Shown in pieces: positions 1,358 to 20,882 of a DNA stretch of 20,883 nt. Position 1 is the stretch's first letter. Each line of letters starts with the position of its first letter. Made by a program: the position numbers and the translations under genes. The notes below the pieces were generated by a model. The model was not told the origin of the DNA, did not search any database, and saw nothing but the letters and a program-made list of their open reading frames with translations. This DNA comes from Thermoplasmatota archaeon (GTDB taxonomy: Archaea > Thermoplasmatota > Penumbrarchaeia > Penumbrarchaeales > Penumbrarchaeaceae): the NCBI GenBank assembly GCA_965234725.1, contig CBDDUX010000087.1, positions 1 to 20,883 of the forward strand. The letters are read 5' to 3'.

Positions 1358-1401
1358 AAAGGGAATTGATACGAAATCATAAGGTCTTGGGAGCCCCTTT
1401 G

Positions 1402-4400: not shown

Positions 4401-5838
4401 GGGTAAACCTTCCATCACCATAATAACACCAGAGGATGGATCGGTCCTTGCTGCCAATATCACAAAAGCCAGCTGGACGGCAACGGATGACCTTTCCGAC
4501 ATTCAGAATTACCTTGTCTCCCTGGATGATGACGAGGCCTTCAGTATAAGCGGAGCAAGTTTCATTATGCTGATAAATCTCAGTGATGGGTACCATACGT
4601 TGACAATTACTGCATTTGACAAAGGAGGAAATTCCGACACTGATGAGATCGTCTTCAGGGTGGACACCTTCAAACCCGCAATAGAGATTACAGGACCCCA
4701 AGAAGGACTGTTGACCCGATCAAGAGACATCAAGGTAACTTGGAATGCCTACGATATCGGGAGCGGGCTCGAACTGTTCAGTATTAAACTTGACGATCAG
4801 GACTGGTTCGATATAAGCCCGGAAAGAACTGAAAGATCATTCTGGCAGCTGGATGACGGAAGGCATGATGTTAAGGTCCTGGCAAGGGACCTTGCTGGGA
4901 ATACCAACACAACCAATGTCAGCTTCACCATTGATGCGACAACCCCTGAACTTTTTATAAACTCCCCTATTGATGGAAGCCACATCTCTCAGGCTCCGGT
5001 ATCCGTTCAATGGAGCGTATCGGATGCTGTTTCCGGGGTAGATCGTGTGGAATTCAAGGATAACAGTTCCGAATGGGAGAAGGTCCCAGCTAACCATATT
5101 GCCCTCCCTGGATTGGAAGAAGGTACATACACGGTATGGATCAGGGCCTTCGACAAGGTGGGCAATGTCGTTGAAGCATCAACGACATTCACTGTGGACA
5201 GGACCCCTCCGGTTGTCCTTGGATACGGCCCTACCGGCAGTAATGAACCTCTTGACGAACCAGTATTCGTATCCTTCTCAGAGAGAATGAACAAGGGAAC
5301 CCTTAGGATCACAGTGGAAGGTGTCACCGGCAAAATCATCTGGCAGGGGGAGAGGGCTGTTTTTGAACCTGCTGGCAAACTTGACCCTGGAATAACCTAC
5401 AATGTGACCGTGACCGGTTCTGACCTGGCCGGAAATACTCTCGAAATGCTTGAATGGTCCTTCACCACCACGGTATTGGGAAAAGTGCGAGGGAGAGTTG
5501 TGGACAAGAATGGTAACTCCCTCGGTGAAGCCAGGATCACCATCGGGGGTGAAGGGTCCGATTCCAGGCCGGATGGAGGATTCTTCATAGAGCTGGTGAA
5601 CGGGACATACAAGATGAGGATAAGCAAGGATGGTTATCGATCCATGACCATCTCGGTTGACATCTCAGCAGGTGAGATCAACGACCTGGGAGAGGTGGTC
5701 CTGAAGGATGAGAAGGATGAAGGTCTGAACTTATTAGCGGTTATCATGGTACCTCTTGCACTGATCCTTATGGTCCTTCTGGTCCTGATCATTGGAAACT
5801 TCCTGAAAGCGGGAAGAAAGCTGGATGAGGAAGAATGA
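1402..5838 (+). CDS. Large surface protein: right-handed parallel beta-helix (NosD/CASH-like) repeats, FN3 domain, tandem Ig-like domains, carboxypeptidase-regulatory-like domain, C-terminal TM anchor
   Basis: ORF track gives 1366..5838; ATG at 1402/1405 follows GGAG and opens a signal peptide (MKTLLITAVLILI). HDPISIDGD..GWKGTGTPQDPFVIE cap motif, many I/V-x-x-N-x-I repeats, GNYWRD..D.ENDGIVDSPY end cap, LNW..P....YTIYRR FN3 motif, GRVVDKNGNSL.EARITI, TM LLAVIMVPLALILMVLLVLII. Confidence 0.85.
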   Translation: MMKTLLITAVLILIDLLPVIPMDAEVNGLQINSTHDPISIDGDEDLVQTAFDEGWKGTGTPQDPFVIEDLEIDGDSDYTCIELLNTSYSVQIRNCTVTNVDESDYDWDKAGIHLYNTTDIRILNITSSECVFGVLVQDSSNIMVEDSRIKSSYMAIYSIRSENITVAGSNLTNCDFGFYAGESNHVLIMNCNISIMERGINIKNGINMTILKNNISICQYGVTYEVNSIGYDLVIENNHFNNIFFDGIVLFSTNKAKIIKNYFENITLRSVLSFWINYNLFIVDNIMINQGQKGIEVRDGNINGARGIASYIHNNTIIGSLIGIYVLRNVEIRGNNITGSVKGIVSESGTLGYNNLIISNTVTNCEEVGIQVGYDVIVEENEIMNCNEGMRLYGSNTTARYNLIHNCTLNGTTITGDDIHLEENVIYGCGMNGIYLSGSGNVDLTRDYIYENTGNGITSINSGPTIYIGTQIHNNGGVGLSTLDNYTLTLRNVSASQNNMVNLNLRCRDDISATGLELYSTETGAFVMSPENVEISDSDFFDLETGINIYQFGSMKMDHNSFDGCGIYLSGPEGPSGMDLSGMDLGTTNRVNGRKLYLIDDSYDEIKLPADSGQLIIYNSNLHFADNLDLSDATIGLIMIGSQNIRVGNTSLDDNIAGILAFDCESIDIVGSSFRNDISGIEFRNVTTSSIEGNGFLRCRGKAVFLEDDSRECSIRENLFFGSIGTTSYAIESFAGETDVYGNHFIYNRGSGDEYATYLTQVIDPLSKVKWSFNGKGNYWRDHHKPDLENDGIVDSPYFIEPSYLTNDPYPLARSYLFDPPVLDLSILIDPPRAILNWQEPDLGKFVKVLNYTIYRREFSGEPEIIAILPTDQTSYMDLNVSYGRDYSYSISVLNDLFEGDRSREIMTDFQVELPVLEIIDPWEGNVTGEDNMQVEWSVDNLSRVDHFEVRIDLMEWKNVGHAFTYRFINLSEGTHIVKIKAVAVTGGDVIQQITFMVDMGKPSITIITPEDGSVLAANITKASWTATDDLSDIQNYLVSLDDDEAFSISGASFIMLINLSDGYHTLTITAFDKGGNSDTDEIVFRVDTFKPAIEITGPQEGLLTRSRDIKVTWNAYDIGSGLELFSIKLDDQDWFDISPERTERSFWQLDDGRHDVKVLARDLAGNTNTTNVSFTIDATTPELFINSPIDGSHISQAPVSVQWSVSDAVSGVDRVEFKDNSSEWEKVPANHIALPGLEEGTYTVWIRAFDKVGNVVEASTTFTVDRTPPVVLGYGPTGSNEPLDEPVFVSFSERMNKGTLRITVEGVTGKIIWQGERAVFEPAGKLDPGITYNVTVTGSDLAGNTLEMLEWSFTTTVLGKVRGRVVDKNGNSLGEARITIGGEGSDSRPDGGFFIELVNGTYKMRISKDGYRSMTISVDISAGEINDLGEVVLKDEKDEGLNLLAVIMVPLALILMVLLVLIIGNFLKAGRKLDEEE
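4144..5199 (+). repeat. Four tandem ~89-aa Ig-like (Big-type) protein repeats
   Basis: Recurring pattern P.(L/I).I..P.(E/D)G......V.W...D..S......D...W........L.(E/D)G.H.V.I.A.D..GN......F.(V/I)D in the translation; DNA-level identity is low. Confidence 0.75.
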
Positions 5839-5842
5839 CCCC

Positions 5843-8575
5843 TCATTCCTCCCAATCCATCTCGTCATTTCTCCTTCTGATGAAAAGGAGGACAACAATG
5901 AACAGGATTATCAGGATCACAGCTGCTATGGCTACCACAACGATCCACATAGGGGAACCATTTTCGTCCTCTTTTTCAGGTTCTTGATCCTCTTTCACAG
6001 GTTCCTCGATCTCGAAGGTCAACGATAGTTCGATCCAACCGGGTCTCTCCTCTTCAGTGGATGAGATGTTCAACAATACCGAATGATTACCTTGTTCAAG
6101 AGAGGAGATCGAAAATTCCATCCCAATATATTCCACCCCATCCACTTGCCAGATGAAGGAAAGGTTCCTATCATCATCCGCCACAGCCTTGAAGAGGACG
6201 GTTCCGTTGGATGGGTAACTACTTCCCTGAGCGGGAGAAACAATACTTGCACCCATAGGTGCCACCGGTTCGATCGGTTCAGGTCCTTGATCTTCTGGCA
6301 ATGTAACATTGACAGTCCATTTGAAAAAATGGACTTCCGATCCTGACCCAAGAACGAGATCCACATCAAAGACCTCTCCACCTTCCAATCCAAGTTCTGA
6401 AGGATCAAGCAAGATCGAGGTTTCATTCGTTATGGTGAGGTTTAGAAAATTCCATTCTGAAAGGATAATGGTCCCATCCGGATCAAATGCATCATATCCG
6501 ATATCCAATGTTCCATTATATTGTAAGGTCGTATTACCCGAAAGCGGATCTAGTGAGACCTCGATTGGTCTGTCCACATCTTCTATTATTACCGTCCAGT
6601 TCCTCATAAGATCGAACGAGTGATCCCTTCCGTCATAGACAATAACCGAAATATTCAATGGGGAATCCTCCGAGGAGTTTGCACCCAAATATTCCGTATG
6701 AAGGTGGATATATCTGAATGCTTCAAAACTGGTATTCCCCACCATCCAAAAATATCTCAGATCGTCACCGTCTGGCTCAGATATGTTCAAGATGAATTCA
6801 ACGGTCATATTCTCCAAGACAGAAATCAGGGTCCCTTCGGGTGCATAGGACTCGATGACATGAGGGCGGTTCACGTCTGTAACATTGATCCGGCATTCAA
6901 TTTCGGTCATATTGTCCGCTGGATAAGTCTGATTGTCAGCGAGTTCATACCTAAGGATATAGGGATATGGTCTGTATGAATTGTTTTGATCATACGTGGT
7001 CAAAAAATCGTAATCCTTGCTGTTCGAAACAACTTCTCCATCGAGATACCACTGACCGAGAAGCTCCTCTCCACCTCTGGATGCTACAACTGAAAAATGG
7101 ATCGTATCCCCCTCCTCGATGTTGAGAGGTCCAGGTTCATGAGAGAGGTTCCAGAGGATCGAAGGTCTTGGTAACACAGTGAAATTGGTCTGAATTCTAT
7201 TGTTCGTTTCATTGATCTCAGTTACCTGGCCGTATATGTCAATGGTCAGACTCAGATTGTAGAAATTTGGAGAAATGAAGGTATCGTTCAGGTAAAGAAC
7301 AATAAAAGATCTGGCAGGAACTGATAGACCATAGGATGTCACTAACTCGTATCGATCAGGTGGAATAAGTTCCAGCATCATGGAAAAGTTCTGGACATCA
7401 AAGTTCGAGGGATTATGGATCCTCATCCCGATCCTGACCATGTCATCAACCGTCCCATTTCCATCCTGTTCTACCCAGAGATCACCCTCTTCCACAACCA
7501 GTTCCTGTGCTTTGGTCGTAACAGTGATCACTCCGATCCCTTCTCCTGTGTTGATCACAACAAGCACTCCCAGAGAAGCGTGATCGATAAGTGTCGGTGT
7601 ATCATCTGCATCCAATGGGGCTTTTAAAACAACGTCAAAATCCTTGTCCCCTCCAACGAGAACAGTGGTCTTGGCAATGTTACCGTCCAGAAAGAAGACA
7701 CTCACAAGACAATTGGAGATGGAAACCTCCCCGTGGACAGTGAAATCCTCGGTTACCCAGACCTGTTGTTCGGTCACTATCTCAAGGTCAACCTGAACAG
7801 AGGTCCTATGGTGTTTGAAAACAGAAAGTTCAAGTGGAATATCCAGGGTGGATCCTCCCACATCCAGGGTATAGCTTCTCAATATGGAATTGCCTACGGA
7901 TCCATTGTAGAAGAGGGTCTCTTCTCCGTTTACCAAAATAGGAAAGATATCGAAGGTACCCGCATCCACAATCATTGATCTTTTCGTCCCCAGAGAGCAA
8001 TCCTGAACGATAGGGACAAGATCTCCCGATCCACCGAATGGAAGCCTTGCGGAAGTATTGACATCCCAGGTATCTCCGGGTACAAGTGGGAAATCGTATT
8101 CTTCAAGTGGAGGCACGTATTCGTATCCAATGGTATAATCGCCATTGATGAAAGATACTGTACCGGAAACCGTTGCATTCAATACGGACCTGTATACTGC
8201 AAGGTCCTGTGCTCTATGCCAGAGATAACCGGTGATGTCTATATCGATCTCAATATCTCCGAGGATCGTCGACTCCTTCCCTGAAATGTGACCTGATAGA
8301 TTCGTGATATAAACCGGATCGCCATTCGAGAGCAGGTCCAGAGTGAAGAGGAAAACGCTCATGTTGATCCAACCGGAGAGTCCCACACTGACGATCCCAG
8401 CATCGTACTCGAACTGAGTGGTATAGTTCCAGAAATCATCCGGACCCCATACAGGGACATCCTCCCATCCCTCCGGGTCGAACGGTGGGTCCTCCAAGGG
8501 GGAGATCGATCCCTGGGCCATTGAGGATGCAGCTAGTAGGAGTGATAGAATTATTATCTTTAACGAGGATCTCAT
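5843..8575 (-). CDS. Secreted multi-domain surface protein (N-terminal beta-sheet domain, CARDB-like domain, PKD/cadherin-like Ig domains, C-terminal TM anchor)
   Basis: ORF track gives 5843..8656; a better start is ATG at 8575, preceded by GGTGGAG and giving signal peptide MRSSLKIIILSLLLAASSMA. CARDB-type EINETNN motif, EPDGDDLRYFW and FDPDG motifs, TM WIVVVAIAAVILIILFIVVLLFI then RRR and an acidic tail. Confidence 0.8.
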   Translation of the reverse strand: MRSSLKIIILSLLLAASSMAQGSISPLEDPPFDPEGWEDVPVWGPDDFWNYTTQFEYDAGIVSVGLSGWINMSVFLFTLDLLSNGDPVYITNLSGHISGKESTILGDIEIDIDITGYLWHRAQDLAVYRSVLNATVSGTVSFINGDYTIGYEYVPPLEEYDFPLVPGDTWDVNTSARLPFGGSGDLVPIVQDCSLGTKRSMIVDAGTFDIFPILVNGEETLFYNGSVGNSILRSYTLDVGGSTLDIPLELSVFKHHRTSVQVDLEIVTEQQVWVTEDFTVHGEVSISNCLVSVFFLDGNIAKTTVLVGGDKDFDVVLKAPLDADDTPTLIDHASLGVLVVINTGEGIGVITVTTKAQELVVEEGDLWVEQDGNGTVDDMVRIGMRIHNPSNFDVQNFSMMLELIPPDRYELVTSYGLSVPARSFIVLYLNDTFISPNFYNLSLTIDIYGQVTEINETNNRIQTNFTVLPRPSILWNLSHEPGPLNIEEGDTIHFSVVASRGGEELLGQWYLDGEVVSNSKDYDFLTTYDQNNSYRPYPYILRYELADNQTYPADNMTEIECRINVTDVNRPHVIESYAPEGTLISVLENMTVEFILNISEPDGDDLRYFWMVGNTSFEAFRYIHLHTEYLGANSSEDSPLNISVIVYDGRDHSFDLMRNWTVIIEDVDRPIEVSLDPLSGNTTLQYNGTLDIGYDAFDPDGTIILSEWNFLNLTITNETSILLDPSELGLEGGEVFDVDLVLGSGSEVHFFKWTVNVTLPEDQGPEPIEPVAPMGASIVSPAQGSSYPSNGTVLFKAVADDDRNLSFIWQVDGVEYIGMEFSISSLEQGNHSVLLNISSTEEERPGWIELSLTFEIEEPVKEDQEPEKEDENGSPMWIVVVAIAAVILIILFIVVLLFIRRRNDEMDWEE

Positions 8576-8588
8576 GTATACTCCACCT

Positions 8589-9587
8589 TCAGGGCTTTGG
8601 TGGTCTAATAATCTGCGGGGCTTTATCCTTTTTCGATCTCTGAGCGATCCAAACACCTATCAACAATCCCAATCCGGCCAAAAGTTGGACGATACCCAGT
8701 CTTTCTCCGAGTAGGACATATCCAAGTATCACAGAGAAGATCGGAAGCAAGAACACATAGAAAATGAGCCTGGATAGGTCACCGGTGCTCAGGACTCTGT
8801 ACCATATTATTGCTGCTACAGCATATACGCAAACTGAGATATAGAACAGGGCCAGGAAACTTTCAAAGGACATTGAAAATGCTCTGATCGGGTCCTCCAC
8901 CCCCGCTATCCAGACGATCATCAGAACAGGTAAAGTGAACAATGCTCCAAGGAAAGCGTTCATTCCTAGGAGGGCAACCGGATCGGCCTTTCGGTTCAGG
9001 GCCATTTTTAGAAGGATGCCGGATATTGAATATGAAAAGGCAGTCAGTAGATTGAGGACTCCCCCTATGACCTGATCGGAACCTAGCTCTATCCCGTTCC
9101 CGGAATAGGTAGTGAGGATTATCGTACAAGGTATTGATATCAGCAGACCTATAAATATCCAGACTCCGATCTTATCTTTCAAGAAGATCCACGCCAGAAA
9201 AATCGTGAAGACCGGACCAACTCCTTGTATAAGAGAAGCCAATGATGATTTTGTAGATGGGTCCATCATCATCATTCCCACGTTCTGCAGGATATTGGGA
9301 AGTGCGGTTCCGAAGAAAGCTGTTCCCACGACGATCAGAAGGTATCTCCTTTTCTTCATTCTGACAAAGAGCCACCATTCTTTTCTCAGAAGGACTCTTC
9401 TCTTAAGGACCAGTCCCAAGAAAAGGTACATTGACATCATGAAAACAGCAGCGATCGCAGACCTCAGGAAACCCAGGGTCACAGGAGGTATATCCTTTAA
9501 AGCAAGAACAATGGCCCAAAAAGCCGTACCGAATACCATCATGGAGAAAATGGCAAGGATCGTGGACCTATCGTTCCTTTCGATCAT
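8589..9587 (-). CDS. EamA/DMT superfamily transporter
   Basis: 332 aa with about 10 hydrophobic segments in two repeats; motifs PPVTLGFLR, GPVFTIFLAWIFLKDK and LPIFSVILGYVLLGERL are typical of EamA. Confidence 0.9.
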   Translation of the reverse strand: MIERNDRSTILAIFSMMVFGTAFWAIVLALKDIPPVTLGFLRSAIAAVFMMSMYLFLGLVLKRRVLLRKEWWLFVRMKKRRYLLIVVGTAFFGTALPNILQNVGMMMMDPSTKSSLASLIQGVGPVFTIFLAWIFLKDKIGVWIFIGLLISIPCTIILTTYSGNGIELGSDQVIGGVLNLLTAFSYSISGILLKMALNRKADPVALLGMNAFLGALFTLPVLMIVWIAGVEDPIRAFSMSFESFLALFYISVCVYAVAAIIWYRVLSTGDLSRLIFYVFLLPIFSVILGYVLLGERLGIVQLLAGLGLLIGVWIAQRSKKDKAPQIIRPPKP

Positions 9588-9816: not shown

Positions 9817-10485
9817 ATGAGGTCGTCCTCACTTCGAAAACTATCTGTCAAGACGACAAATAATGAGAGAAAGGTCCGTTTCGGTCCTGTATCTTATGTC
9901 TTCAAGGAGGTTTGGAGGAACAGGTCCAGGACCCTGATGTCCATCTCCTCAATAGCGGCTCTCTCATTCCTATTTGTCCTTTTCATGTCAATGGAAAGCG
10001 GTTTCGAGGATTTTTTTGAAGATGATACAGGAGTACCTTCAGAGGACCAGAAAGACCTTTTCGAGGTCAAGGGAGTGATGGAACAGTGGATCTATCTGAT
10101 AACAGGTCTCTGCATGGTCCTTATGGTCCTTGTGGTCGCAAATACCGGCGTGATTACAGTTATCGAAAGGAAACAGGAACTTGCAAGTTTGAGGGCCATG
10201 GGGATCCCATCACTTAAAGTGGGACTGCTGGTCGGCGGATCTCTGGCTTTGATCCTTTATGGTGGGATTTTCTCCGGGACCATACTTGGCCTTGTTTCGA
10301 TCCCTTTGCTTGATAGGGTCAATATCACACTTGCAGCTGATGGTATAGGGTTTCCATTTGCATTCGAGTGGAGGACCATTTTCTATATTATCACAATAGG
10401 GACCGTGTCAGGTGCAGTAGGTTCCTCAATGCCTCTTTTCCTCATGTTAAGAAGCTCTCCTTTGGAGGTGCTAAGGGATGGTTGA
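9817..10485 (+). CDS. FtsX-like (MacB/LolE-type) ABC permease with very short extracytoplasmic loop
   Basis: N-terminal amphipathic VWRNRSRTLMS, four TM segments, coupling motif VIERKQELASLRAMG, C-terminal SSPLEVLRDG. Confidence 0.85.
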   Translation: MRSSSLRKLSVKTTNNERKVRFGPVSYVFKEVWRNRSRTLMSISSIAALSFLFVLFMSMESGFEDFFEDDTGVPSEDQKDLFEVKGVMEQWIYLITGLCMVLMVLVVANTGVITVIERKQELASLRAMGIPSLKVGLLVGGSLALILYGGIFSGTILGLVSIPLLDRVNITLAADGIGFPFAFEWRTIFYIITIGTVSGAVGSSMPLFLMLRSSPLEVLRDG

Positions 10486-11200
10486 TGGTGAGTTCATCTC
10501 GGTCCGCAATGCTGTCAAGGAATACAGGATGGGAAGTTCCATAGTAAGAGCCCTCGATGGAATGGACCTTGAAATAAATGAAGGTGAGATGGTGGCCATC
10601 ATGGGACCGTCCGGAGCTGGAAAGACCACCCTTCTGAACATCATAGGTGGTCTCGATAGTCCGGACAGCGGAAAGGTCCTCATCAAAAACATGGAGATAT
10701 CATCTCTCGGTGAAGGACAGAGGGCCCATTTCAGGAAGAACAATGTAGGTTTCATTTTTCAGTTCTTCAACCTTATCCCTTCTCTTACAGCTCTGGAGAA
10801 CGTGCTGGTTCCGGTCATGTTCGATCGTGACCCCCCTTACAAAAGGGCGTTATCACTCCTTGAAAGAGTGGGACTCAAGGATAGGATGGACCATGTTCCC
10901 GGGAAGCTTTCAGGTGGAGAGAGGCAGAGAGTTGCGATAGCCAGAGCATTGATAAATGACCCCATATTGATACTTGCTGACGAACCTACTGGAAACATCG
11001 ATTCCGAGACAGCAAGGGAGATAGTTGGACTCTTCAAAGAATTGAACGAGGAAGGTAAGACACTCCTCCTTGCAACTCACGACCGACTTGTGGCTGGAAG
11101 GGCCAGGAGCATGGTCCGTGTCAGGGATGGAAGAATAGTCAAGGGCAAGGCCGACCCCAGGTCAGGTGTTGTACATCTGACAAAAGGAGGAGGCATATAA
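10478..11200 (+). CDS. ABC transporter ATP-binding protein, LolD/MacB-like
   Basis: Walker A GPSGAGKTT, Q-loop GFIFQFFNL, signature LSGGERQRVAIARAL, Walker B ILADEPTGN, H-loop THD; overlaps the upstream stop by 8 nt. Confidence 0.95.
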   Translation: MVDGEFISVRNAVKEYRMGSSIVRALDGMDLEINEGEMVAIMGPSGAGKTTLLNIIGGLDSPDSGKVLIKNMEISSLGEGQRAHFRKNNVGFIFQFFNLIPSLTALENVLVPVMFDRDPPYKRALSLLERVGLKDRMDHVPGKLSGGERQRVAIARALINDPILILADEPTGNIDSETAREIVGLFKELNEEGKTLLLATHDRLVAGRARSMVRVRDGRIVKGKADPRSGVVHLTKGGGI

Positions 11201-11872
11201 TTGGATAGAAATACCTTCAATGCTGCCACTTACTCCATGTCCCATCTTGTGAAGGAGAGGGCCAGATCCCTGACAACGATCGTCACGATATCTCTAACTG
11301 TGGCTTTCCTACTCCTGACATCATCCTTACTGTTCGGTGTGATCTCTGAGATCCAGACAGATGAGAAGGCGGGTATCTTGCAGGGGCGTATCCCGGGATC
11401 ATTGGACATGTTCGAACAATTCCGGATAACCGGGGAGTTGTCAGAGAAGGCCAGGAACTCTTTGGTCAACTATCTCCTTATCACCTCGCTTATCGTGTTC
11501 ATTGTTGCCTTTTTTATAATGTACAATACAATGGCAATATCCGTCAGGGAAAGAAGGAAGGAGATCGGTATCTTGAGAGCGGTGGGATTCTCTACAAGCG
11601 AGGTGCTCAAGCTCTTTTTAGTGGAGGGTGGTATAATTGGTTTGATATCATGGATATCTGCCCTTTTCCTTGGCACGCCCCTCATAGTGAACCTTGCGGC
11701 ATACCTGATCGAGAGAGGTGATAGGGGATTGTTCTTCGTCCAGCCGGTGATCCCCATCCAGCTTGTATTGCTTTCTCTTATTGCGACACTGGCCCTTTCT
11801 GTTGGCTCCACATATATTGCAACGATAGGACCCGTAAGGTCCTCACCTGTGGCAATGATGAGGATCGGTTGA
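11201..11872 (+). CDS. Second FtsX-like (MacB/LolE-type) ABC permease with short extracytoplasmic loop
   Basis: TTG start after AGGAGGAGG; motif SVRERRKEIGILRAVGFS..EV..LFLVEG, four TM segments, C-terminal SSPVAMMR. Confidence 0.88.
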   Translation: MDRNTFNAATYSMSHLVKERARSLTTIVTISLTVAFLLLTSSLLFGVISEIQTDEKAGILQGRIPGSLDMFEQFRITGELSEKARNSLVNYLLITSLIVFIVAFFIMYNTMAISVRERRKEIGILRAVGFSTSEVLKLFLVEGGIIGLISWISALFLGTPLIVNLAAYLIERGDRGLFFVQPVIPIQLVLLSLIATLALSVGSTYIATIGPVRSSPVAMMRIG

Positions 11873-11957
11873 AAGAAGACCATGCAAATGTAGTGTCCTT
11901 CGAAATATAACGCTCCAAAGAGATCTGATGGACAATATTTCCATGATTTTGACCTCC

Positions 11958-11971
11958 CTATAATTATATAG
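11958..11971 (+). promoter_or_regulatory. TATA box, probably for a leaderless transcript of the translin/SepRS-like operon
   Basis: TTATATAG starts at 11964, 28 nt before ATG 11992; no SD-like sequence lies in front of that ATG. Confidence 0.5.
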
Positions 11972-11991
11972 CCGCTCACACTTCCATCGTC

Positions 11992-12582
11992 ATGACATTA
12001 CCAGGGCAGATCAGGTCATATATATCAGAGGACCTGGATCGGGAGGAGGAGGAAAGAGAGCGTGCCTATGGAAGGTCCAGGTCACTTATCAAAGCCTGCA
12101 GGGACATGATCTCGAGGATGGTCCAGGGGGAGATGGGAGATCCACAAGTCCTGCTGGATTCATATGATGATCTATTGACCGATCCTACCAATAGGATGGG
12201 TTTCGTGGAAGATTCTCTGACCGAGCTTTCTGAGGCTATTCTTTTACATAGGTCGATAATAATGGATGGTCTTCCAAAACCCGATGAGATCGGATTGACC
12301 GCCCGGGCCTATGCTTTAGGTGCCTGTGATGCAGTTGGAGAGCTGAGACGGATCGCTCTGAACAGACTAATTAAAGGGGATATAGAGGGTGCTGTCTTCA
12401 TGTATGATCGTATGAAGGACCTGTTCTCATTGGTCGACGGTCTAACATATCCATCTGGTATGATACAACTTAAACGCAAACAGGACTCTGCCCGGTCAGC
12501 CATAGACAGGACGCAGGGAGAACTCACTATCGTCCTTGCAGGAAGAAGGGCGACTGATATCGGAGATGAGAGAGATGGATGA
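11992..12582 (+). CDS. Archaeal translin/TRAX (C3PO) family RNA-binding endonuclease
   Basis: 196 aa, all-helical; EEERERAY..SR, ELSEA, YALGACDAVGELRR and LKRKQD.AR match translin-family motifs; the acidic catalytic set (E-x2-E and D-x3-E) is retained. Confidence 0.88.
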   Translation: MTLPGQIRSYISEDLDREEEERERAYGRSRSLIKACRDMISRMVQGEMGDPQVLLDSYDDLLTDPTNRMGFVEDSLTELSEAILLHRSIIMDGLPKPDEIGLTARAYALGACDAVGELRRIALNRLIKGDIEGAVFMYDRMKDLFSLVDGLTYPSGMIQLKRKQDSARSAIDRTQGELTIVLAGRRATDIGDERDG

Positions 12583-14140
12583 GAAAGAAGATGGTTTGAA
12601 GGGATCTCTGAATGAGAAGAAGGGAGAGGATGTCATAAATTACTTCTCTGGAGTTGGGCACCCTCATCCGATATCGCAGGGTGTCAACGAAATGAGGGGA
12701 CTTCTTCTGGGATCCGGATTTAACGAGATCCAAACTTCATACTTCGTGGAGAGAGGTGAGCTGAAGAACCTTACGGGTAATCTTTACCCGGTATTCCGGG
12801 ACTCGATATATCATCTGGCCTGGATAAGGCCTGAGCCCCTCGCCCCCACAATGGATGTGGAAAGAAAATTGAGGGATAGGTTTCCCAATATTGATATGGC
12901 CAACCTATGGAATATCCTTGATGGTCTGGATGAGGACACAAGTGGGGAGGAGATACTCTTTTCCATCCAGGAAGAACTGGATCTATCCGTCATGGAAACA
13001 GTCGAGCTCATGAACATCGTTCCAGGTCTTTCCAGGGGGGAGCCTAGAACCAGTGATATGACGCTTAGATCCTTCATGCCGACATCCTGGTTGTCCACCC
13101 TTGAAGCCACATATCATGAGGATAAAATGCCTCTCAGGTTATTCACTACGGCCACAGCGTTTCGAAGGGAACCTACGCCCGATTCCACCCATATAGAGAC
13201 CTATAATATCCTTTCACTTGCCATTGCCGATACTGATCTGACCCTTGACAAAGGACTTGCGGTTCTAAGGAGACTCATTGAGCGCCTTGACCTTTCTGAT
13301 ATTACATTCAAGGGTAAAAGTTACAGTTTCCCTTTCTTCGAAAAGGAATCTGAGCTCGAGATATTTGGAGGGGACCTTGAGCTTGGAACGTGTGGCATGG
13401 TAGCAAAGGAGATAAGGGAAAGCAGGGGAGTAAATGTACCTGTTTTCATTGCTGATCTGGGAATCGAGAGACTTCTGATGTTCAGGCATGGATATCCTGA
13501 TATCAGGGAACTTCTCTATCCACAGTTCTATGCAGCCTGGGACCTCACTGATGAGGAGATCGGAGATGCTATAAGATATGTCAGGAGACCTCAGACAGAT
13601 TTCGGTAAAGAGATCGCCCAGGCAATACACTCGATCTACAAGGATTCCCCTGACTGTCAGGACCTGTCAAAGAAGACAGCCTGGAAAGGTATCCTTGTAA
13701 GTTCAGACTATGGCAAATTCCTTGTAAGTACCGAACGGGCAAAGGAATTGAAGATCGAGGGAACTCCGGCCGAGGTGATACTCAAGGAGGCCAGAGAGGG
13801 AATGGGCCTTTGTGGTCCGGGAGCCTTCAATCAAATTCTGGTCCATGAAGGGAATATTCTGGGAGTTCCACCTTCAATGGTTAAATCCATGGAAGAAAAA
13901 GGAGCATTCAATACCAATAAGACATTCGTCAAAGCCTTCTCCAGATTTGCAGCCTGGAAGGTAGAGAGATCGCTGGATCGAGGTCATACTCTGAGAAAGG
14001 TGGATAAGATCAGGGATCTGGAGGGTATAAACCTCAAACTCACTTCCAAGGCCCTCTACTACATGCTCAGCCATAATAAGAAGGTGGATGTCCAGGGGCC
14101 GGTATTCCTGAAGTTCTCATTCAAGGTCAAAGATGAATGA
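12575..14140 (+). CDS. sepS: O-phosphoseryl-tRNA synthetase (SepRS) homologue, strongly diverged at the amino-acid pocket
   Basis: Likely start ATG 12575 after GGAGATGA (track start 12536). SepRS landmarks in order: G.PHP..., TLRS.M...W, P.RLF....FRRE...D..H..TY (motif 2), PV....LGIERL.M...GY.DIR.L.YPQFY (motif 3), LCGP...N.I.V..GNILG.PP, INLK and K.DV.GPVFL. Family call is secure; canonical Sep activity is doubtful (see findings). Confidence 0.85.
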   Translation: MDEKEDGLKGSLNEKKGEDVINYFSGVGHPHPISQGVNEMRGLLLGSGFNEIQTSYFVERGELKNLTGNLYPVFRDSIYHLAWIRPEPLAPTMDVERKLRDRFPNIDMANLWNILDGLDEDTSGEEILFSIQEELDLSVMETVELMNIVPGLSRGEPRTSDMTLRSFMPTSWLSTLEATYHEDKMPLRLFTTATAFRREPTPDSTHIETYNILSLAIADTDLTLDKGLAVLRRLIERLDLSDITFKGKSYSFPFFEKESELEIFGGDLELGTCGMVAKEIRESRGVNVPVFIADLGIERLLMFRHGYPDIRELLYPQFYAAWDLTDEEIGDAIRYVRRPQTDFGKEIAQAIHSIYKDSPDCQDLSKKTAWKGILVSSDYGKFLVSTERAKELKIEGTPAEVILKEAREGMGLCGPGAFNQILVHEGNILGVPPSMVKSMEEKGAFNTNKTFVKAFSRFAAWKVERSLDRGHTLRKVDKIRDLEGINLKLTSKALYYMLSHNKKVDVQGPVFLKFSFKVKDE

Positions 14141-15939
14141 AAGATTTCTTTCACCATTCTCCCCGGCCACTCCTTATATCCAACAGCAGGGAATGGTTCA
14201 ATGTGATGTCTAGAAGATCTCTTTTTGGGGAAAAGGAGTGGAGGTACAGGAAGGAGAACCTCGAGATCGGTGGACGACTTTCGAAGGGGCTTGATTGCGG
14301 TTCACTTACTGGGAGACTGCTTGCAGCAAGGGGTTTCTTAGGTGTTGAAGATGCTTATGCTTTCCTGCATCCTGCATTGAGGGGACTGCATGATCCTTTC
14401 CTGTTGAATGGGATGGAAAGGACCGTTGAACGGATAGGGAGGGCAATAACAGGTAAGGAGAGGGTCCTGGTCCATGGGGATTATGATGCAGATGGGATCA
14501 CATCCACGGCTCTTCTTGTAAAAGCTCTCTCATCTTCTATGGGCAGGGATCGTGTTTCCCACTATCTCCCATCTAGGTATGGTGAGGGTTACGGTGTATC
14601 CATGGAAAGGTTGGATACCGCTCAGAAAGAGGGTATTGATCTGGTCATCACCGTGGACTGCGGAATAAAAGCATTGGAGGCCGCCGACAAGGCCAGAGAT
14701 ATTGGGATCGACCTGATATTGACGGACCATCACGAACCGGGAGAAGAACTTCCCCGGGCCTTTTCGATCATAGATCCCAAGATCAAGGATTCAGGTTATC
14801 CATTCAGAGATCTGGCAGGGGTTGGAGTTTCATTCAAACTGGCACTTGCCCTGCAGCAGAGAGAGCTCCTTCTAATGGATGCAAGAGACCTTTTGGGACT
14901 CGTAGCCTTTGGGACAGTTGCAGATCTGGTACCTTTGCTCGGTGAGAATAGGATACTTGTGAAGCATGGTCTGGATATCCTAAGGGATACCAGAAGTCCA
15001 GGTATGTTATCTTTGATGACGGAATCCGGTATTGATCTTGCAAAGGGTATCAGTGCATCTGATATTGCCTTCAAGCTTGGTCCAAGGGTCAATTCTGCAG
15101 GTAGGATGGGGGATCCTGCCATGGCCCTGGAGTTGCTGCTAACCGATGACAGAGTGGATGCTGACCTTTTCGCCAGGGAGTTGAACAATTTGAACTTCAA
15201 GCGAAAGGCGGTTGGATCGAAACTTGTGCAAGAGATCGGCAGGGCCATGGGGGAGATCGGGACGGATGAGGATCCATTCATTGTTGTTTCTGGAGAGGGC
15301 TGGAATCCTGGCGTCCTTGGTATATCCGCCAACAGGATAATGGATAGTCTGGCCAGACCCGTTGCCGTTCTTTCAATTCAGGAGGGGATAGCAAGAGGTT
15401 CGGTGAGGGCACCTGAAGGTTTCGATCTACTGAAGGCTCTCGATTCTGTTAGGGACCTGTTCATTGAATATGGAGGGCATGAGAGAGCTGCCGGTGTCAC
15501 ATTGTCATCCGAACTCCTGAATGAATTGAGGTCCAGATTGGTCGATCATACCCGAGTTTCATATCCAGATCTCAGTTTCATTCCATCACTGTTGATAGAT
15601 ATGTCGCTTAACATCGATGAAATGGACTTGAACGAGTTGAAGGACCTGGAAAAACTTGAACCATTCGGAACAGGCAATCCGACTCCATTGGTATCCATCA
15701 GAGATATCATGGTCGGAGGAGAGAGAAGGACGGTAGGTGATGGTAAGCATCTGAGAATGACCATTGAGGATGGAAGCAGCAAGGTCCAGTGCATATATTT
15801 TAACGGCGGACAACTTCTTGACCAACTTCACACAGGGATGATCATTTCTGTGGTTGGAGAACCTTCTGTCCATCGGTGGGGGGGAAAGGAATCGGTCCAA
15901 CTGAGACTTGTCGATATCAAGAGCGAAGAACACTGCTGA
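14137..15939 (+). CDS. recJ: Single-stranded-DNA-specific exonuclease RecJ, bacterial type
   Basis: DPFLLNGM, HGDYDADG, EGYG, ITVDCG, TDHH, LAGVGVSFKL, GTVADLVPLLGENR, GPRVNSAGR, RGSVR, GGHERAAG, LEPFGTGNP and a C-terminal OB-fold region (KHLRM...QLRLVDI). ATGA overlap with the upstream gene; alternative start ATG 14206. Confidence 0.95.
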   Translation: MKDFFHHSPRPLLISNSREWFNVMSRRSLFGEKEWRYRKENLEIGGRLSKGLDCGSLTGRLLAARGFLGVEDAYAFLHPALRGLHDPFLLNGMERTVERIGRAITGKERVLVHGDYDADGITSTALLVKALSSSMGRDRVSHYLPSRYGEGYGVSMERLDTAQKEGIDLVITVDCGIKALEAADKARDIGIDLILTDHHEPGEELPRAFSIIDPKIKDSGYPFRDLAGVGVSFKLALALQQRELLLMDARDLLGLVAFGTVADLVPLLGENRILVKHGLDILRDTRSPGMLSLMTESGIDLAKGISASDIAFKLGPRVNSAGRMGDPAMALELLLTDDRVDADLFARELNNLNFKRKAVGSKLVQEIGRAMGEIGTDEDPFIVVSGEGWNPGVLGISANRIMDSLARPVAVLSIQEGIARGSVRAPEGFDLLKALDSVRDLFIEYGGHERAAGVTLSSELLNELRSRLVDHTRVSYPDLSFIPSLLIDMSLNIDEMDLNELKDLEKLEPFGTGNPTPLVSIRDIMVGGERRTVGDGKHLRMTIEDGSSKVQCIYFNGGQLLDQLHTGMIISVVGEPSVHRWGGKESVQLRLVDIKSEEHC

Positions 15940-15999
15940 TGAACATTGTTATATCCCTTCCCACTTATCATGATATGGCAATTTCTGCCGGTGGTTCAA

Positions 16000-16596
16000 A
16001 TGAAGCTCATCAAGGTCCTTGGTTTTGACCTGGACGGAACCCTTGTTAAGATGAAGCTGGATTTCAAGATGATCAGGAAGGACCTCGGGATCCCGGATGG
16101 AGATACGTTGGGATATATCTCCTCACTTCCAGAGCAGGAAGCAAAAAGACTTTTCAACATGTTGAAGGAGAAAGAGATGGAAGCAGCTGACCTTGCCGAA
16201 CCAGCGGAAGGAGCCAGGGAACTTATTGATTACTGCATTGAGAAGAACATCAAAGTTGTTGTGATCACACGCAACTCTGAAGAGGCAACAAAGAAAACAC
16301 TTGAGAACCTCGATCTAAATGTTGATATGGTCATATCCAGGGACCATGCTACCCCGAAGCCATCTCCAGAGGCCATAAACATAGTCCTAAATCAATTCGG
16401 GATCGAACCTAAGGAGATGGCCTACGTTGGAGACTACCTTTATGATATCCAGGCCGGAAATGCAGCCGGTGTCAAGACGATCCTTCTCTCCGGCCAGGAA
16501 AGGGCCGGTGAGTGGGCATCATATGCAAATTACGTTGCTGAGGACCTTTATGAGGTCCTTGATATATTGAGAGAAGGGAAGACCATCGGGGGTTGA
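16000..16596 (+). CDS. HAD-superfamily hydrolase (phosphoglycolate-phosphatase-like, subfamily IA)
   Basis: Likely start ATG 16000 after GGTGG (track start 15946). Motif I FDLDGTL, II ITRN, III KPSP, IV VGDYLYDIQAG. Confidence 0.9.
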   Translation: MKLIKVLGFDLDGTLVKMKLDFKMIRKDLGIPDGDTLGYISSLPEQEAKRLFNMLKEKEMEAADLAEPAEGARELIDYCIEKNIKVVVITRNSEEATKKTLENLDLNVDMVISRDHATPKPSPEAINIVLNQFGIEPKEMAYVGDYLYDIQAGNAAGVKTILLSGQERAGEWASYANYVAEDLYEVLDILREGKTIGG

Positions 16597-16599
16597 CCT

Positions 16600-17355
16600 T
16601 TGGAAGAGTTGGAGGTAGGGAAGGCAGGGGTTTTGAGCCTTGTACTTGTGGATGCCGAAATTGAGCTCGTACCCCCTGAGTTCTGGTCCCATCCCGCAGT
16701 TGTGGAAAATGCCAAGAAAAGGAAGAAGAAGCCCTCCTTGGTGCTACTGGATACAAACCTGCATCACTCGCTTTTTAGGGACCATGTTGAAAGGAACAGG
16801 AGGGGAAGACCGGATATAGTCCATCAGTTCCTTCTGATAGGGTTGGAATCGATCCTCAACATCGAAGGTGGACTCAAGTTATACATTCACACCAGGAACG
16901 ATGAACTGATAACCATCTCTCCCAAAACAAGACTTCCCAAGAACTACAATCGATATTACGGCCTCTTCGAGGAGCTCTTCAGATCAGGTTCTGTTCCACC
17001 TGGAAATGATCCATTGATAACCATGAAGCCTGGAATGGACCTTAAAGAAGTTCTGGAAGAGGTCTTCAGGTCGGGTCCCCAGGGAATGAAAAGGACTGTC
17101 GTTACACTTGATTCCGGAGGAACAAGATCGAATGCTTACGACAAGATAGGATCATTGGGAGAAGGACCATTCCATCTGATCTGCCTGATAGGTGGATTTC
17201 CATCCGGTGGTTTCAAGTCTAAACCTCATAAGTATTCCGATGTCACCCTCTCCCTTCATAGTAATGAACTGAAGGCCTGGGCAGTTGAGATGGAATTGAT
17301 ATCCGCCTTCTACAACGTCAAGTTCAGAGGAATCCGTACTTCTGAAGAAGCATGA
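16600..17355 (+). CDS. nep1: Nep1/EMG1 16S rRNA pseudouridine N1-methyltransferase (SPOUT fold)
   Basis: AEIELVP, LLDTNLHH, RGRPDIVH..LL..LESILN..G.L..YIHT, RLPKNYNRYYGLFEELF, IGGFPSGGF. Start could instead be TTG 16633. Confidence 0.93.
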   Translation: MEELEVGKAGVLSLVLVDAEIELVPPEFWSHPAVVENAKKRKKKPSLVLLDTNLHHSLFRDHVERNRRGRPDIVHQFLLIGLESILNIEGGLKLYIHTRNDELITISPKTRLPKNYNRYYGLFEELFRSGSVPPGNDPLITMKPGMDLKEVLEEVFRSGPQGMKRTVVTLDSGGTRSNAYDKIGSLGEGPFHLICLIGGFPSGGFKSKPHKYSDVTLSLHSNELKAWAVEMELISAFYNVKFRGIRTSEEA

Positions 17356-18226
17356 GGTCCTCTGTGGAGATCTTGTCCCCCTTCTTGAACTTCTCATATA
17401 TCTTCTCGGCTTCTACCTTACCTGTTGCAGGGCTTGGTGCCTGGGGTGCGGACTGTGCCTTTCCAGGTTTCTTCTCCTGACTCCTTCTCCTCTGTTTCAA
17501 TGCATAAAGGATCTTGTCCATATCATGGACCAGATGTATCATCTCGATGTGGTGCTTATGTTCCTCATCTGCCTTTACCTTGGAGGCAACGAAGCTTTCC
17601 TGTGCTGAATCCGCTTCCTTCCTTATCCTGTCGGACTGGGAGAACCTGTCTATCATCTGGTCATGTTCTTTTTGGGCCAGGTCTGCATAGTTATTGACCT
17701 GATGGTGTGCATCGTCCATGTTGGTCTTTGCATCCCTGACCTTGGTGATCAGCTCTTTCATCTCTCCGGTTGCTTCCATCAACTTCTCTTTTTTCCGAAC
17801 CTGATGTTTCAATGAACCTATCTTTTCGACAAGTCCCCTTTCCTTGTCTGCTTCAAGGACAGAGGTCTGCTGTTTGAACTCTAGTCCCTTGAGCTCCTTC
17901 TTCAACTTTGAAAGCGAAACCTCATCATGTGTTGACAATCTGGATTTCCTCTGCTTGTCAAGTTCAGCTTTAAGAGCATTATAATCCCTGGTCAGGACGT
18001 CCCTCACGGACTTCTGCTCCCTGACCTTGCTATTGAGCTCATCACGCTTCTCCTTGAACTTATTAGCTTCCTGGAGAAGCTTTTTTACTTGTGCGTTCAG
18101 CTGATCTCTGGTTTCGGCGAACCTTTTTGTCTCCTGGTTCAGCCTGTCCCTCTTCTTTCTGTGAGCTTCAGCTTCTAAGTTGACCTTATTCCTTTTATCC
18201 TCAAGTTCATCAAGATACTCCGGCAT
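17324..18226 (-). CDS. Conserved archaeal long coiled-coil protein (COG1340-like)
   Basis: Likely start ATG 18226 (track start 18238). Repeated KRD.LN/RD.LN heptads, LEFKQQTSVL..DKE, RKEAD..., C-terminal AEKIYEKFKKGDKISTEDLMLLQK signature. Confidence 0.85.
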   Translation of the reverse strand: MPEYLDELEDKRNKVNLEAEAHRKKRDRLNQETKRFAETRDQLNAQVKKLLQEANKFKEKRDELNSKVREQKSVRDVLTRDYNALKAELDKQRKSRLSTHDEVSLSKLKKELKGLEFKQQTSVLEADKERGLVEKIGSLKHQVRKKEKLMEATGEMKELITKVRDAKTNMDDAHHQVNNYADLAQKEHDQMIDRFSQSDRIRKEADSAQESFVASKVKADEEHKHHIEMIHLVHDMDKILYALKQRRRSQEKKPGKAQSAPQAPSPATGKVEAEKIYEKFKKGDKISTEDLMLLQKYGFL

Positions 18227-19155: not shown

Positions 19156-20184
19156 ATGGGGAAACGTATCAGCCTTACAGTTGATGAAAGGGTTATTCTT
19201 CACCTTTACGAGTTCATACCTTATGAGGAAGATTTCGAGGCTCCTGGTGACATCACACAGGCCGGTATCGCAAAAGGTATTGGGATCGAGAGAAAGCATG
19301 TTCCCAGAGCGGTAAAAAAACTGATCACGGAGAATCTTGTGGAGACCCGTATATCCCACGTAAAAAGCGGAAGGCAGAGGAAGAAAGTATACTATCTTAC
19401 CTTCGAGGGTAAGGCCCTTGCAAGACGGATCTGGGAATCCCTTGCCAAGAAAATGGTGATTATCAGGGATGAGGATGGAAAAGAAAAGGAGACCTCCTTC
19501 TCGGAGCTGTGTTTCACCTTTCAGGTTGGTAAGACACCCATCCAGCTCCTGATGGAGTTAAAGGATGGAAACTATTACCTTCCAAATGAGGCTCCGGACC
19601 ATCCCGAGAGAATTGAGAGGAAGGAGAAGAAGAAGTCACCTGAAGTTCACGGTGCAAAGGATATCTATAAGAAAGCCCTAAAAAAAGCCTGGGAGGATTC
19701 GATCCTTACAAAGGATGAATCCGCATTATTAAAGGAACTCCGTGATTCACTAGGAATAAGCGAAGAAGAGCACAGAATGCTCCAAGAGGAGATCCTTGGA
19801 GGCAGTGCGGCGATGTCAGAACCTCTGAACAAGATGGAGGTCTACAAGAAGATCCTGGAAGTGGCCATGAGGGATGGAACGATAACTGAGGATGAGCAGG
19901 ATATCCTAGACGAACTGGAGAGGTCCCTTGGAATGGATAGGGAGACCATAACCCAGCTTAAGATGGAGATGAAGCTTATGGAGGGGGAGGGAATTATGAC
20001 AAGGGAGAAGAAACATAACAATTTCAAGGATATCTACTCCTCTGTTATAAGGGAATCAATGAAGGATGGAAGGATATCACGCGATGAACAGAATATCATT
20101 ATACTCCTGAAGAAACTCATGGAGATCGAGGATCAGGAGCATCTCAAGATTTTCGAGAGTATCAATGAGGATAGTGAACGATAG
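19156..20184 (+). CDS. Winged-HTH (MarR-like) protein with three C-terminal TerB-like helical repeats
   Basis: ITQAGIAKGIGIERKHVPRAVKKL...LVE......RKKVYYLTFEG is a wHTH; three copies of Y...L.....DG.IT.DE...L..L...LG follow; TATA TTTAATAA at 19123-19130. Confidence 0.8.
   Translation: MGKRISLTVDERVILHLYEFIPYEEDFEAPGDITQAGIAKGIGIERKHVPRAVKKLITENLVETRISHVKSGRQRKKVYYLTFEGKALARRIWESLAKKMVIIRDEDGKEKETSFSELCFTFQVGKTPIQLLMELKDGNYYLPNEAPDHPERIERKEKKKSPEVHGAKDIYKKALKKAWEDSILTKDESALLKELRDSLGISEEEHRMLQEEILGGSAAMSEPLNKMEVYKKILEVAMRDGTITEDEQDILDELERSLGMDRETITQLKMEMKLMEGEGIMTREKKHNNFKDIYSSVIRESMKDGRISRDEQNIIILLKKLMEIEDQEHLKIFESINEDSER
19660..20165 (+). repeat. Three ~55-65-aa TerB-like protein repeats
   Basis: DIYKKALKKAWEDSILTKDESALLKELRDSLGISEEEH / EVYKKILEVAMRDGTITEDEQDILDELERSLGMDRET / DIYSSVIRESMKDGRISRDEQNIIILLKKLMEIEDQEH. 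Confidence 0.8.
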
Positions 20185-20241: not shown

Positions 20242-20523
20242 ATGCTAGAAGAATCAAGCCATATGGAGAGCCTTGAAGTATTCACTCCGTGGGGTGTGAG
20301 CATAGGAATGACCGCCAGTGTGGAGATAGACTCAGAGAATTGTGAGATCGCAAATATATTCCTCGAAGAGACCAATAGTAAGCTGGTGGAAGAAGGCGCC
20401 AGCATACTGATACCCTATAGATGGGTACAGGCAGTGGGGGATATCATTATTCTGAGATATTTCCCTGAGGAACTACCCATCAGGTCAATGGAGGACCTTG
20501 GGCTTGATGAGTACAGGTACTGA
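20242..20523 (+). CDS. PRC-barrel domain protein
   Basis: 93 aa; EVFT..G..IG....VEID and IPYRWVQAVGDIIIL are typical of archaeal stand-alone PRC-barrel proteins. Confidence 0.85.
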   Translation: MLEESSHMESLEVFTPWGVSIGMTASVEIDSENCEIANIFLEETNSKLVEEGASILIPYRWVQAVGDIIILRYFPEELPIRSMEDLGLDEYRY

Positions 20524-20804: not shown

Positions 20805-20882
20805 GGGCATGTAGTCTAGCTTGGTCAAGGCGACAGCCTCCTAAGCTGTAGGTCTCCGGTTCGAATCCGGTCATGCCCGCCA
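20805..20882 (+). tRNA. tRNA-Arg (anticodon CCT), intronless, CCA encoded
   Basis: Acceptor GGGCATG/CATGCCC, D arm GTCT/AGGC, anticodon stem ACAGC/GCTGT with loop CT-CCT-AA (anticodon 20840-20842), T loop TTCGAAT, discriminator G, CCA at 20880-20882. Confidence 0.97.

Follow-up and report, generated by a model that had tools for sequence, protein, structure and literature searches.

The question raised by this locus is what a protein with the full build of an O-phosphoseryl-tRNA synthetase (SepRS) does when the pocket expected to hold phosphoserine has been rebuilt. The gene concerned, which we refer to as the SepRS-like gene, lies at positions 12575-14140 on the + strand of a 20,883-nucleotide stretch of DNA from a Thermoplasmatota archaeon (GenBank assembly GCA_965234725.1, contig CBDDUX010000087.1), the whole of which is called the window below, and it encodes 521 amino acids from an ATG at 12575. 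Throughout the family the pocket has been remade in a fixed way, with His replaced by Phe, Thr by Pro, Asn by Ile, Leu or Val, and the Gly of the floor by Asp or Glu, and with a wall of the form F-P-[YF]-F. The reading that we favour, with about even confidence, is that the protein may be an active ATP-dependent ligase that charges a Cys-type tRNA, or one derived from it, with something other than phosphoserine.

The resemblance to SepRS is not due to chance, as the NCBIfam sepS model (TIGR00470) covers the protein from end to end, with residues 40-531 on model positions 43-532 of 533, and the score of 201.1 bits lies below the curated cut-off of 380.65 bits. The SepRS architecture is present at full length (N-terminal extension, catalytic domain, insertion domain and C-terminal anticodon-binding domain), and this architecture and the motif positions, as given in an earlier note made from the sequence alone, all agree with the translation and the alignment. 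In Pfam the class IIc core (tRNA-synt_2d) is found at 98 bits, and SepRS_C gives a match below threshold. Among solved structures the best matches are to SepRS, from A. fulgidus, M. jannaschii and M. maripaludis (E 1e-45 to 2e-42), the phmmer alignment to the A. fulgidus enzyme (2du3, E 1e-45) taking in A. fulgidus residues 42-530, and the Atlas model of one orthologue (P0007) has a SepRS cluster as its best structural neighbour, with a TM score of 0.73 over 480 residues. Other families fall short of their cut-offs: PheRS alpha at 75 bits against 350, PylRS at 31.4 against 178.15, and SrmL, a PheS-related mystery ligase, at 33.6 against 300. The open reading frame (ORF) is itself open from an in-frame TTG at 12536, and the start at 12575 is the residue at which the orthologues begin, with GGAG 9 nt 5' of the ATG.

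The column counts that follow are from 32 SepRS-like, 26 canonical SepRS and 32 PheRS alpha rows, a 374-residue fragment (P0029) being left out; the canonical and PheRS rows were chosen by eye after the motif table had been inspected, and leave out odd or degenerate forms. The class II residues that bind ATP are in place. Motif 2 is intact as FRRE (13160-13171, + strand as for all the motifs given here; R210, R211 and E212), motif 3 reads LGIERL (13457-13474), and R210, R211, E212, E311 and R312 are present in 32/32 SepRS-like rows, the Arg-Arg-Glu of motif 2 being conserved in canonical SepRS too. Between SepRS and the SepRS-like proteins 55 columns are conserved identically and 20 are conserved but different, and every one of these 20 falls in residues 79-307.

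The differences are seen most directly in three segments. RSFMPTSW (13067-13090) stands in place of the RSHMT..W of SepRS and is paired by phmmer with RSHMTTGW of A. fulgidus; YNILSL (13202-13219) stands in place of ..SAS.. (YFSASC in A. fulgidus), with the second Ser retained; and PVFIADLG (13439-13462) pairs with PVMNLGLG, so that in the longer stretch PVFIADLGIERL (13439-13474) Asn-X-Gly has become Ile-Ala-Asp and is followed by the intact G-I-E-R of motif 3. A. fulgidus H186, T188, S231, S233, N325 and G327 are thus matched by F, P, I, S, I and D in the window protein, and among the conserved His, Thr, Ser233, Asn and Gly of the R-S-H-x-T, Ser233 and Asn-X-Gly elements only Ser233 is retained. 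The earlier note takes H186, T188, S231, S233 and N325 to be the ligands of the phosphate, and its residue numbers agree with a count along the PDB chain.

Four of the replacements in that note stand out clearly. Position 180 is Phe in 31 SepRS-like rows and Tyr in one, and is His in all 26 canonical and 28 of the 32 PheRS alpha rows; position 182 is Pro in all 32, against Thr in 26 of 26 canonical and 32 of 32 PheRS alpha rows. At position 305 there is Ile (26), Leu (5) or Val (1) where canonical SepRS has Asn (25/26) and PheRS alpha has Ala (32/32), and at position 307 there is Asp (31) or Glu (1) where both have Gly (25/26 and 32/32). Position 227, equivalent to Ser233, is Ser in 32/32 SepRS-like and 26/26 canonical rows and is Glu or Asp in PheRS alpha. 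The fifth replacement, at position 225, is of less use: the SepRS-like rows have Ile, Val or Leu (32/32) and PheRS alpha has Gln (32), and since Ser is found in just 9/26 canonical rows the change from S231 to Ile carries little weight. To the question of whether the presumed ligands are commonly substituted in true SepRS, the answer is that there is little or no variation at His, Thr, Asn and Gly and that the S231 position varies. His and Thr are not phosphate-specific ligands, as they are also invariant, or almost so, in PheRS alpha (H 28/32, T 32/32).

Alignment with E. coli PheS gives some idea of the shape of the new pocket. Window residues F265-P266-F267-F268, the FPFF strand at 13328-13339, fall on F248-P249-F250-T251 of PheS and on S-K-Y-Y of SepRS, and F304-I305-A306-D307 fall on F293-A294-F295-G296. 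How deep the PheRS pocket is depends on two residues, A294 and T251 in E. coli (A314 and V261 in T. thermophilus), and its floor is made up of invariant glycines (PMC3275996). These two residues are matched here by I305 and F268, and D307 takes the place of one of the glycines conserved in both PheRS and SepRS. With Ile, Phe and Asp at the depth and floor positions, the cavity would be smaller and hydrophobic, with a single acidic group buried inside, a setting hostile to phosphate.

This pocket is derived and is no relic, because 7 of the 20 diagnostic columns have one state in SepRS and PheRS and another in the SepRS-like proteins, the reverse being found at only 1 of 20. The loss of His, Thr and Gly, all three shared by SepRS and PheRS alpha, is a derived state, and a relic intermediate between PheRS and SepRS, which we considered, is rejected on the same counts.

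The remade pocket is also under strong constraint. Our search of 5.8 billion proteins gave 32 matches, of which 31 are orthologues (45-95% identity, 517-1127 bits) and the last is a canonical SepRS (27% identity, 179 bits). The replacements are fixed across the 32 SepRS-like rows, with only minor I/L/V, D/E and F/Y variation, and 148 of 521 columns are at least 90% conserved. A scan of species-representative genomes found 22 related loci, all in metagenome-assembled genomes (MAGs) of Thermoplasmatota. The ORF has no interruption in the window or in 21 of these loci, and the 22nd is cut by a contig end. Against the nearest relative (L001, 95% identical) the ratio of nonsynonymous to synonymous substitution (dN/dS) is 0.046 at a dS of 0.66, more distant pairs being saturated; the neighbouring genes gave 0.125 (TRAX-like) and 0.150 (recJ). 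The earlier suggestion of selective re-specialisation rather than decay is borne out, since the same replacements are fixed in 32 rows, dN/dS is 0.046, and the ATP-binding motifs are kept in 32/32.

The earlier note had also called the protein a SepRS paralogue, and for this we find no support as stated, since in our trees the SepRS-like proteins form a clade outside canonical SepRS and do not branch from within it. In an IQ-TREE tree of 42 rows rooted on PheRS alpha, the 20 canonical SepRS rows group together (97/99) to the exclusion of the SepRS-like proteins, themselves a clade with 100/100 support. Forcing the SepRS-like proteins next to the methanogen/Archaeoglobus-type rows, a group named after the tree had been seen, costs 102.7 log-likelihood units and is rejected (p-AU 7e-12). 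The family thus appears to be a deep-branching relative of SepRS, and faster evolution after a change of function could mimic such deep branching.

A second SepRS-like type, which has His-Leu-Glu and is represented by P0036, P0183 and P0184 (3 clusters), has 33-36% identity to the window protein. It shares with the window family Pro in place of Thr, a hydrophobic residue at 225 (equivalent to S231), L-S, G-T-C-G and an acidic residue in place of Gly, and differs in having His where the window family has Ile and in the strand that carries E418. A sister grouping of the two is weak (90/65, with SH-aLRT 90 in another tree) and we do not rely on it. Other unusual SepRS relatives were seen: P0038 and P0041, with Tyr-Ile-Asn and a long extension at the N terminus; P0040, in which Leu-Val-Asp goes with a degenerate motif 2 (FHHE); P0042 and P0043, from which motif 2 has been lost; and P0055, otherwise canonical with Asn-Met-Asp.

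The family is not new. It was described by Mukai, Amikura, Fu, Soll and Crnkovic (Front Genet 2022, PMC8762117), whose section 3.3.1 covers "SepRS-like proteins from Thermoplasmata" in two lineages, in which Asn-X-Gly has become Ile/Leu-X-Asp and residues of the phosphoserine (Sep) pocket are altered. As described in that section, the gene is in an operon headed by a TRAX homologue, with recJ next in the lineages from Guaymas Basin and Zodletone. The authors consider that Sep cannot be accommodated by the pocket, in agreement with the earlier note, by which the protein probably cannot bind phosphoserine, and they report no SepCysS in Thermoplasmata. The same section already proposes both of the functional alternatives put forward in the earlier note, a ligase for another substrate or a non-charging protein, so that the novelty claimed there is not supported. 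The window gene, with Ile-Ala-Asp, TRAX upstream and recJ downstream, can be equated by these features with the family described in that section and is a further member of it, with no substantial difference. The 22 related loci are likewise all from MAGs named as Thermoplasmatota, Thermoplasmata or Thermoplasmatales, the hosts of the family in that description, and include ex4484_6 (Guaymas-type) and Zod_Metabat (Zodletone) MAGs; the window protein is 95% identical to a public MAG protein. The supplement of the 2022 paper does not mention CysRS or list accessions for the Thermoplasmata SepRS-like lineages. In a full-text literature search the term "SepRS-like" was found only in Mukai 2022 and Mukai 2017, there was no functional follow-up from 2022 onward among the literature matches listed, and a 2025 paper on Thermoplasmatota diversity (PMC12220078) mentions neither synthetases nor cysteine.

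The C-terminal domain, of the SepRS anticodon-binding type, lies at 13676-14137 (start approximate; + strand) and aligns with A. fulgidus SepRS residues 407-530. At 12 of the 13 columns in this domain that are at least 80% conserved in canonical SepRS the SepRS-like proteins have the same or a similar residue, and the mean frequency of the top residue is 0.70, close to the 0.72 of the catalytic core (both for approximate boundaries). E418 is invariant in the SepRS-like family. Directly before the strand that bears it there is a clade-specific insert of 20 residues, SDYGKFLVSTERAKELKIEG (13703-13762, + strand), recognised from a 20-column gap in the canonical row and from the offset to A. fulgidus SepRS, which drops from 20 to 0 across the stretch. 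Between the PDB sequences 2du3 and 2du5, which come from complexes with anticodon variants, the differences are E418N and E420N.

Putting these observations together, we suggest that the SepRS-like protein would still use ATP to make an acyl-adenylate, from which the acyl group would be moved on to a tRNA 3' end. Phosphoserine would not be the substrate; a small molecule, either uncharged or cationic and held by the new Asp as polar anchor, is more likely. The tRNA would be of Cys (GCA) type or a derivative of that type, and the protein would be produced together with a TRAX-like RNase encoded by an overlapping gene.

This second gene (11992-12582, + strand; 196 aa) is the first of the unit and is recognised as TRAX/translin-like from a Pfam Translin match of 34 bits and a best PDB match to AfTRAX of A. 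fulgidus (3zc1, E 2e-12). Four acidic residues, E78, E81, D113 and E117, are invariant in 23/23 orthologues and have the spacing of the catalytic tetrad of C3PO from N. equitans (NeC3PO; Glu82, Glu85, Asp117 and Glu121; PMC5100593), and the RNase is on this basis predicted to be catalytically intact. The ATG of the SepRS-like gene overlaps the TRAX-like stop by 8 nt; an ATG with an overlap of 4 or 8 nt is found in 15/22 related loci, and the other 7 have candidate starts within 17 nt (starts inferred). A TATA-like sequence, TATAATTATATA (11960-11971), lies 21-32 nt upstream of the TRAX-like start. A promoter scan was at chance level, with 8 promoter-like sites against 7.0 expected, and there are no + strand terminator-like sites from 11700 to 17500, that is through to Nep1.

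On the other side, recJ (14137-15939, + strand; 600 aa) starts with a 4-nt overlap of the SepRS-like stop. It is of bacterial type (TIGR00644, 526 bits against a cut-off of 396.9; PDB 8y30, E 2.9e-96), and here sits in an archaeal genome. TRAX is upstream in 22/22 loci and recJ downstream in all 21 that reach that far, and the two genes are part of about 20 kb that is collinear, as far as the contigs reach, across 22 species-level Thermoplasmatota genomes with proteins 35-95% identical. The order is FtsX, ABC, FtsX; TRAX, SepRS-like, RecJ, HAD, Nep1; DUF7121 (opposite strand); SPFH, a helix-turn-helix (HTH) protein, a small ORF and finally tRNA-Arg(CCT), which is at 20805-20882 in the window and is present in 11/22 loci. 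The link to TRAX is stronger than that to recJ because of the overlapping start (in the window and 15/22 loci), the pairing of TRAX with clade I SepRS, and the catalytic acids retained in 23/23. TRAX adjacency is nevertheless no marker of a new function, since a TRAX gene precedes many true (clade I) SepRS genes in other archaea (PMC5424206). The literature covered gives no function for an archaeal TRAX that lies next to SepRS.

There are several points that weigh against an active ligase of the kind we favour, the first being that its activity, substrate and tRNA are all predicted, and so is the role of Asp as substrate anchor, which is read from the sequence alignment. Several residues that are 100% conserved in canonical SepRS have been lost, among them the Arg of LDR and another Arg 9 residues further along, and the bulkier I305, F268 and D307 sit where PheRS leaves space for its substrate, so that the pocket could be closed and the protein might charge nothing. 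Changes are also seen in the anticodon-reading strand: at position 420, 24/26 canonical rows have an acidic residue, and the five residues most often found in the SepRS-like rows, R, K, G, V and S (29/32), are basic or neutral, with the 20-residue insert adjoining this same strand. No tRNA gene is near other than tRNA-Arg(CCT), which is 6.7 kb off, and the adjacency of recJ is weak functional evidence that may mean nothing, because the whole neighbourhood is collinear.

A protein that no longer aminoacylates is the main rival, one that we think doubtful yet give more weight than any other. It would bind tRNA and act with the TRAX-like RNase, and perhaps RecJ, in tRNA or RNA processing, repair or quality control. 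The translational coupling to a TRAX-like gene with its four catalytic acids kept in 23/23, the 4-nt overlap with recJ, and the bulky pocket replacements that could close the amino acid site all fit such a role, as does the report that C3PO degrades pre-tRNA fragments in Neurospora (PMC5100593). However the ATP-binding residues of motifs 2 and 3 are invariant in 32/32, which is not expected of a dead catalytic domain, and a dead subunit is further disfavoured by the retention of these motifs together with a constrained anticodon-binding domain. TRAX also precedes true SepRS genes, as noted above, and there is no special co-evolution with it: in a mirror-tree comparison TRAX gave r 0.70 against 0.92-0.95 for unrelated neighbours, and with no excess we dropped this as evidence for a link. 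A fusion with TRAX was not found, which is weak evidence: a Pfam scan of 11 odd or long SepRS homologues gave no Translin domain (4/11 carry tRNA-Thr_ED), and a search with the TRAX alignment gave no longer proteins.

The next alternative, which we consider unlikely, is an ATP-dependent ligase with an acceptor other than tRNA. EpmA/PoxA, AsnA and the amino acid:carrier-protein ligases are synthetase-like ligases of this sort, and the retention of catalytic residues with changed amino acid specificity residues, and the altered anticodon-reading strand, would suit a further example. The difficulty is that the full anticodon-binding domain is retained and is constrained like the catalytic core; the known synthetase paralogues that do not act on tRNA lack this domain or have lost it. 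Nor do the neighbouring genes include an evident carrier protein or target.

Within the favoured reading of a tRNA-charging ligase there is a more specific proposal, quite unlikely in our view, that the protein is one half of an extra synthetase-tRNA pair. In a first form it would be a class II enzyme loading Cys or a new Cys precursor on a Cys-type tRNA, which if true would mean direct loading of Cys or a precursor in archaea without SepCysS. In a second form it would load a non-standard amino acid on a dedicated tRNA, which may differ in the middle base of the anticodon given that the acidic residue at 420 is now basic or neutral, and this if true would amount either to a genetic code that has been expanded or altered or to a new biosynthetic route dependent on tRNA.

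It is very improbable that the protein still charges tRNA with phosphoserine through another mode of Sep binding. It does have the SepRS architecture, the Ser equivalent to A. fulgidus S233 (S227, 32/32), and TRAX upstream as in clade I SepRS. But the His, Thr, Asn and Gly that vary little or not at all in 26 canonical rows have all been replaced, the acidic residue in the pocket would repel phosphate, three Tyr hydroxyls have been lost, the score is far under the sepS cut-off, and SepCysS is absent from Thermoplasmata by the account of Mukai et al. In the window a scan of 16 ORFs gave no SepCysS-like protein, and tRNA-Arg(CCT) is its sole tRNA, with no tRNA-Cys and nothing further in an Rfam scan; the earlier note had said the same of SepCysS and tRNA-Cys. 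A decaying gene or pseudogene, which has the low family score and nothing else in its favour, can be given a negligible probability and is already contradicted by an ORF intact in the window and 21/22 loci, by the dN/dS and by the 148 highly conserved columns.

The remaining genes in the window can be dealt with briefly. Upstream of the TRAX-like gene, at 9817-11872, is an ABC exporter of MacB/LolCDE type in split form, its ATPase (240 aa) encoded between two short permeases with an FtsX domain (222 aa for the first, 223 aa for the second). Two genes are for very large, probable surface proteins, one of 1490 aa (1366-5838, +) with beta-helix/NosD repeats and many Ig-like domains, and the other of 937 aa (5843-8656, -) which carries a PKD domain and has at its C terminus a weak membrane anchor of GGIII-like type. 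A 342-aa protein at 19156-20184 has an N-terminal MarR-like winged helix, weak ENT/TerB-like matches, and a weak match in PADLOC to the candidate system PDC-S48 (37 bits). A defence-system reading of the locus was considered and dropped, as PADLOC gave no match for TRAX, the SepRS-like protein, RecJ or HAD. The conserved ORFs at 161-1336 (391 aa) and 20242-20523 (93 aa) have no family match at the thresholds used, and have relatives in 3/22 and 11/22 loci respectively.

Synthetase families in which amino acid specificity has changed naturally are rare, and those known up to now, SepRS and PylRS, each opened a new route into the genetic code and have become tools for its expansion. The SepRS-like family is conserved, under selection and apparently catalytically competent, and we found no assignment of its substrate in the literature searched. 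The window adds comparative detail rather than a new kind of object, and it narrows the hypotheses at three points: the catalytic residues and the tRNA domain are retained, the states found in the pocket are derived ones, and there is a newly acquired acidic residue.

With regard to known systems other than the SepRS-like family, canonical SepRS, as represented by 2DU3 (A. fulgidus), 2DU7 (M. jannaschii) and 2ODR (M. maripaludis), has the same length, domain order, motifs 2 and 3, and core of the anticodon-binding domain. Identity is only about 27%, and the window family differs in the altered His, Thr, Asn and Gly, in the 20-residue insert and in the absence of the acidic residue at 420. PheRS alpha shares the class IIc core and the F-P-[YF] and G-x-C/G-G-M strands, and positions 265, 266 and 284 carry the residue of PheRS and not that of SepRS. 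However the window protein is without the Q/E of FHQIEG and the H/T of RTHTT, having F, P, I and S there; it has Ile and Phe for Ala and Thr and Asp for an invariant Gly; and it has an anticodon-binding domain of its own, with no PheRS beta-subunit partner in the window. PylRS, also of class IIc, is a precedent for a hydrophobic pocket combined with a dedicated tRNA and a non-canonical amino acid. It does not read the anticodon (PMC9499178), in contrast to which the SepRS-like protein retains an anticodon-binding domain of SepRS type.

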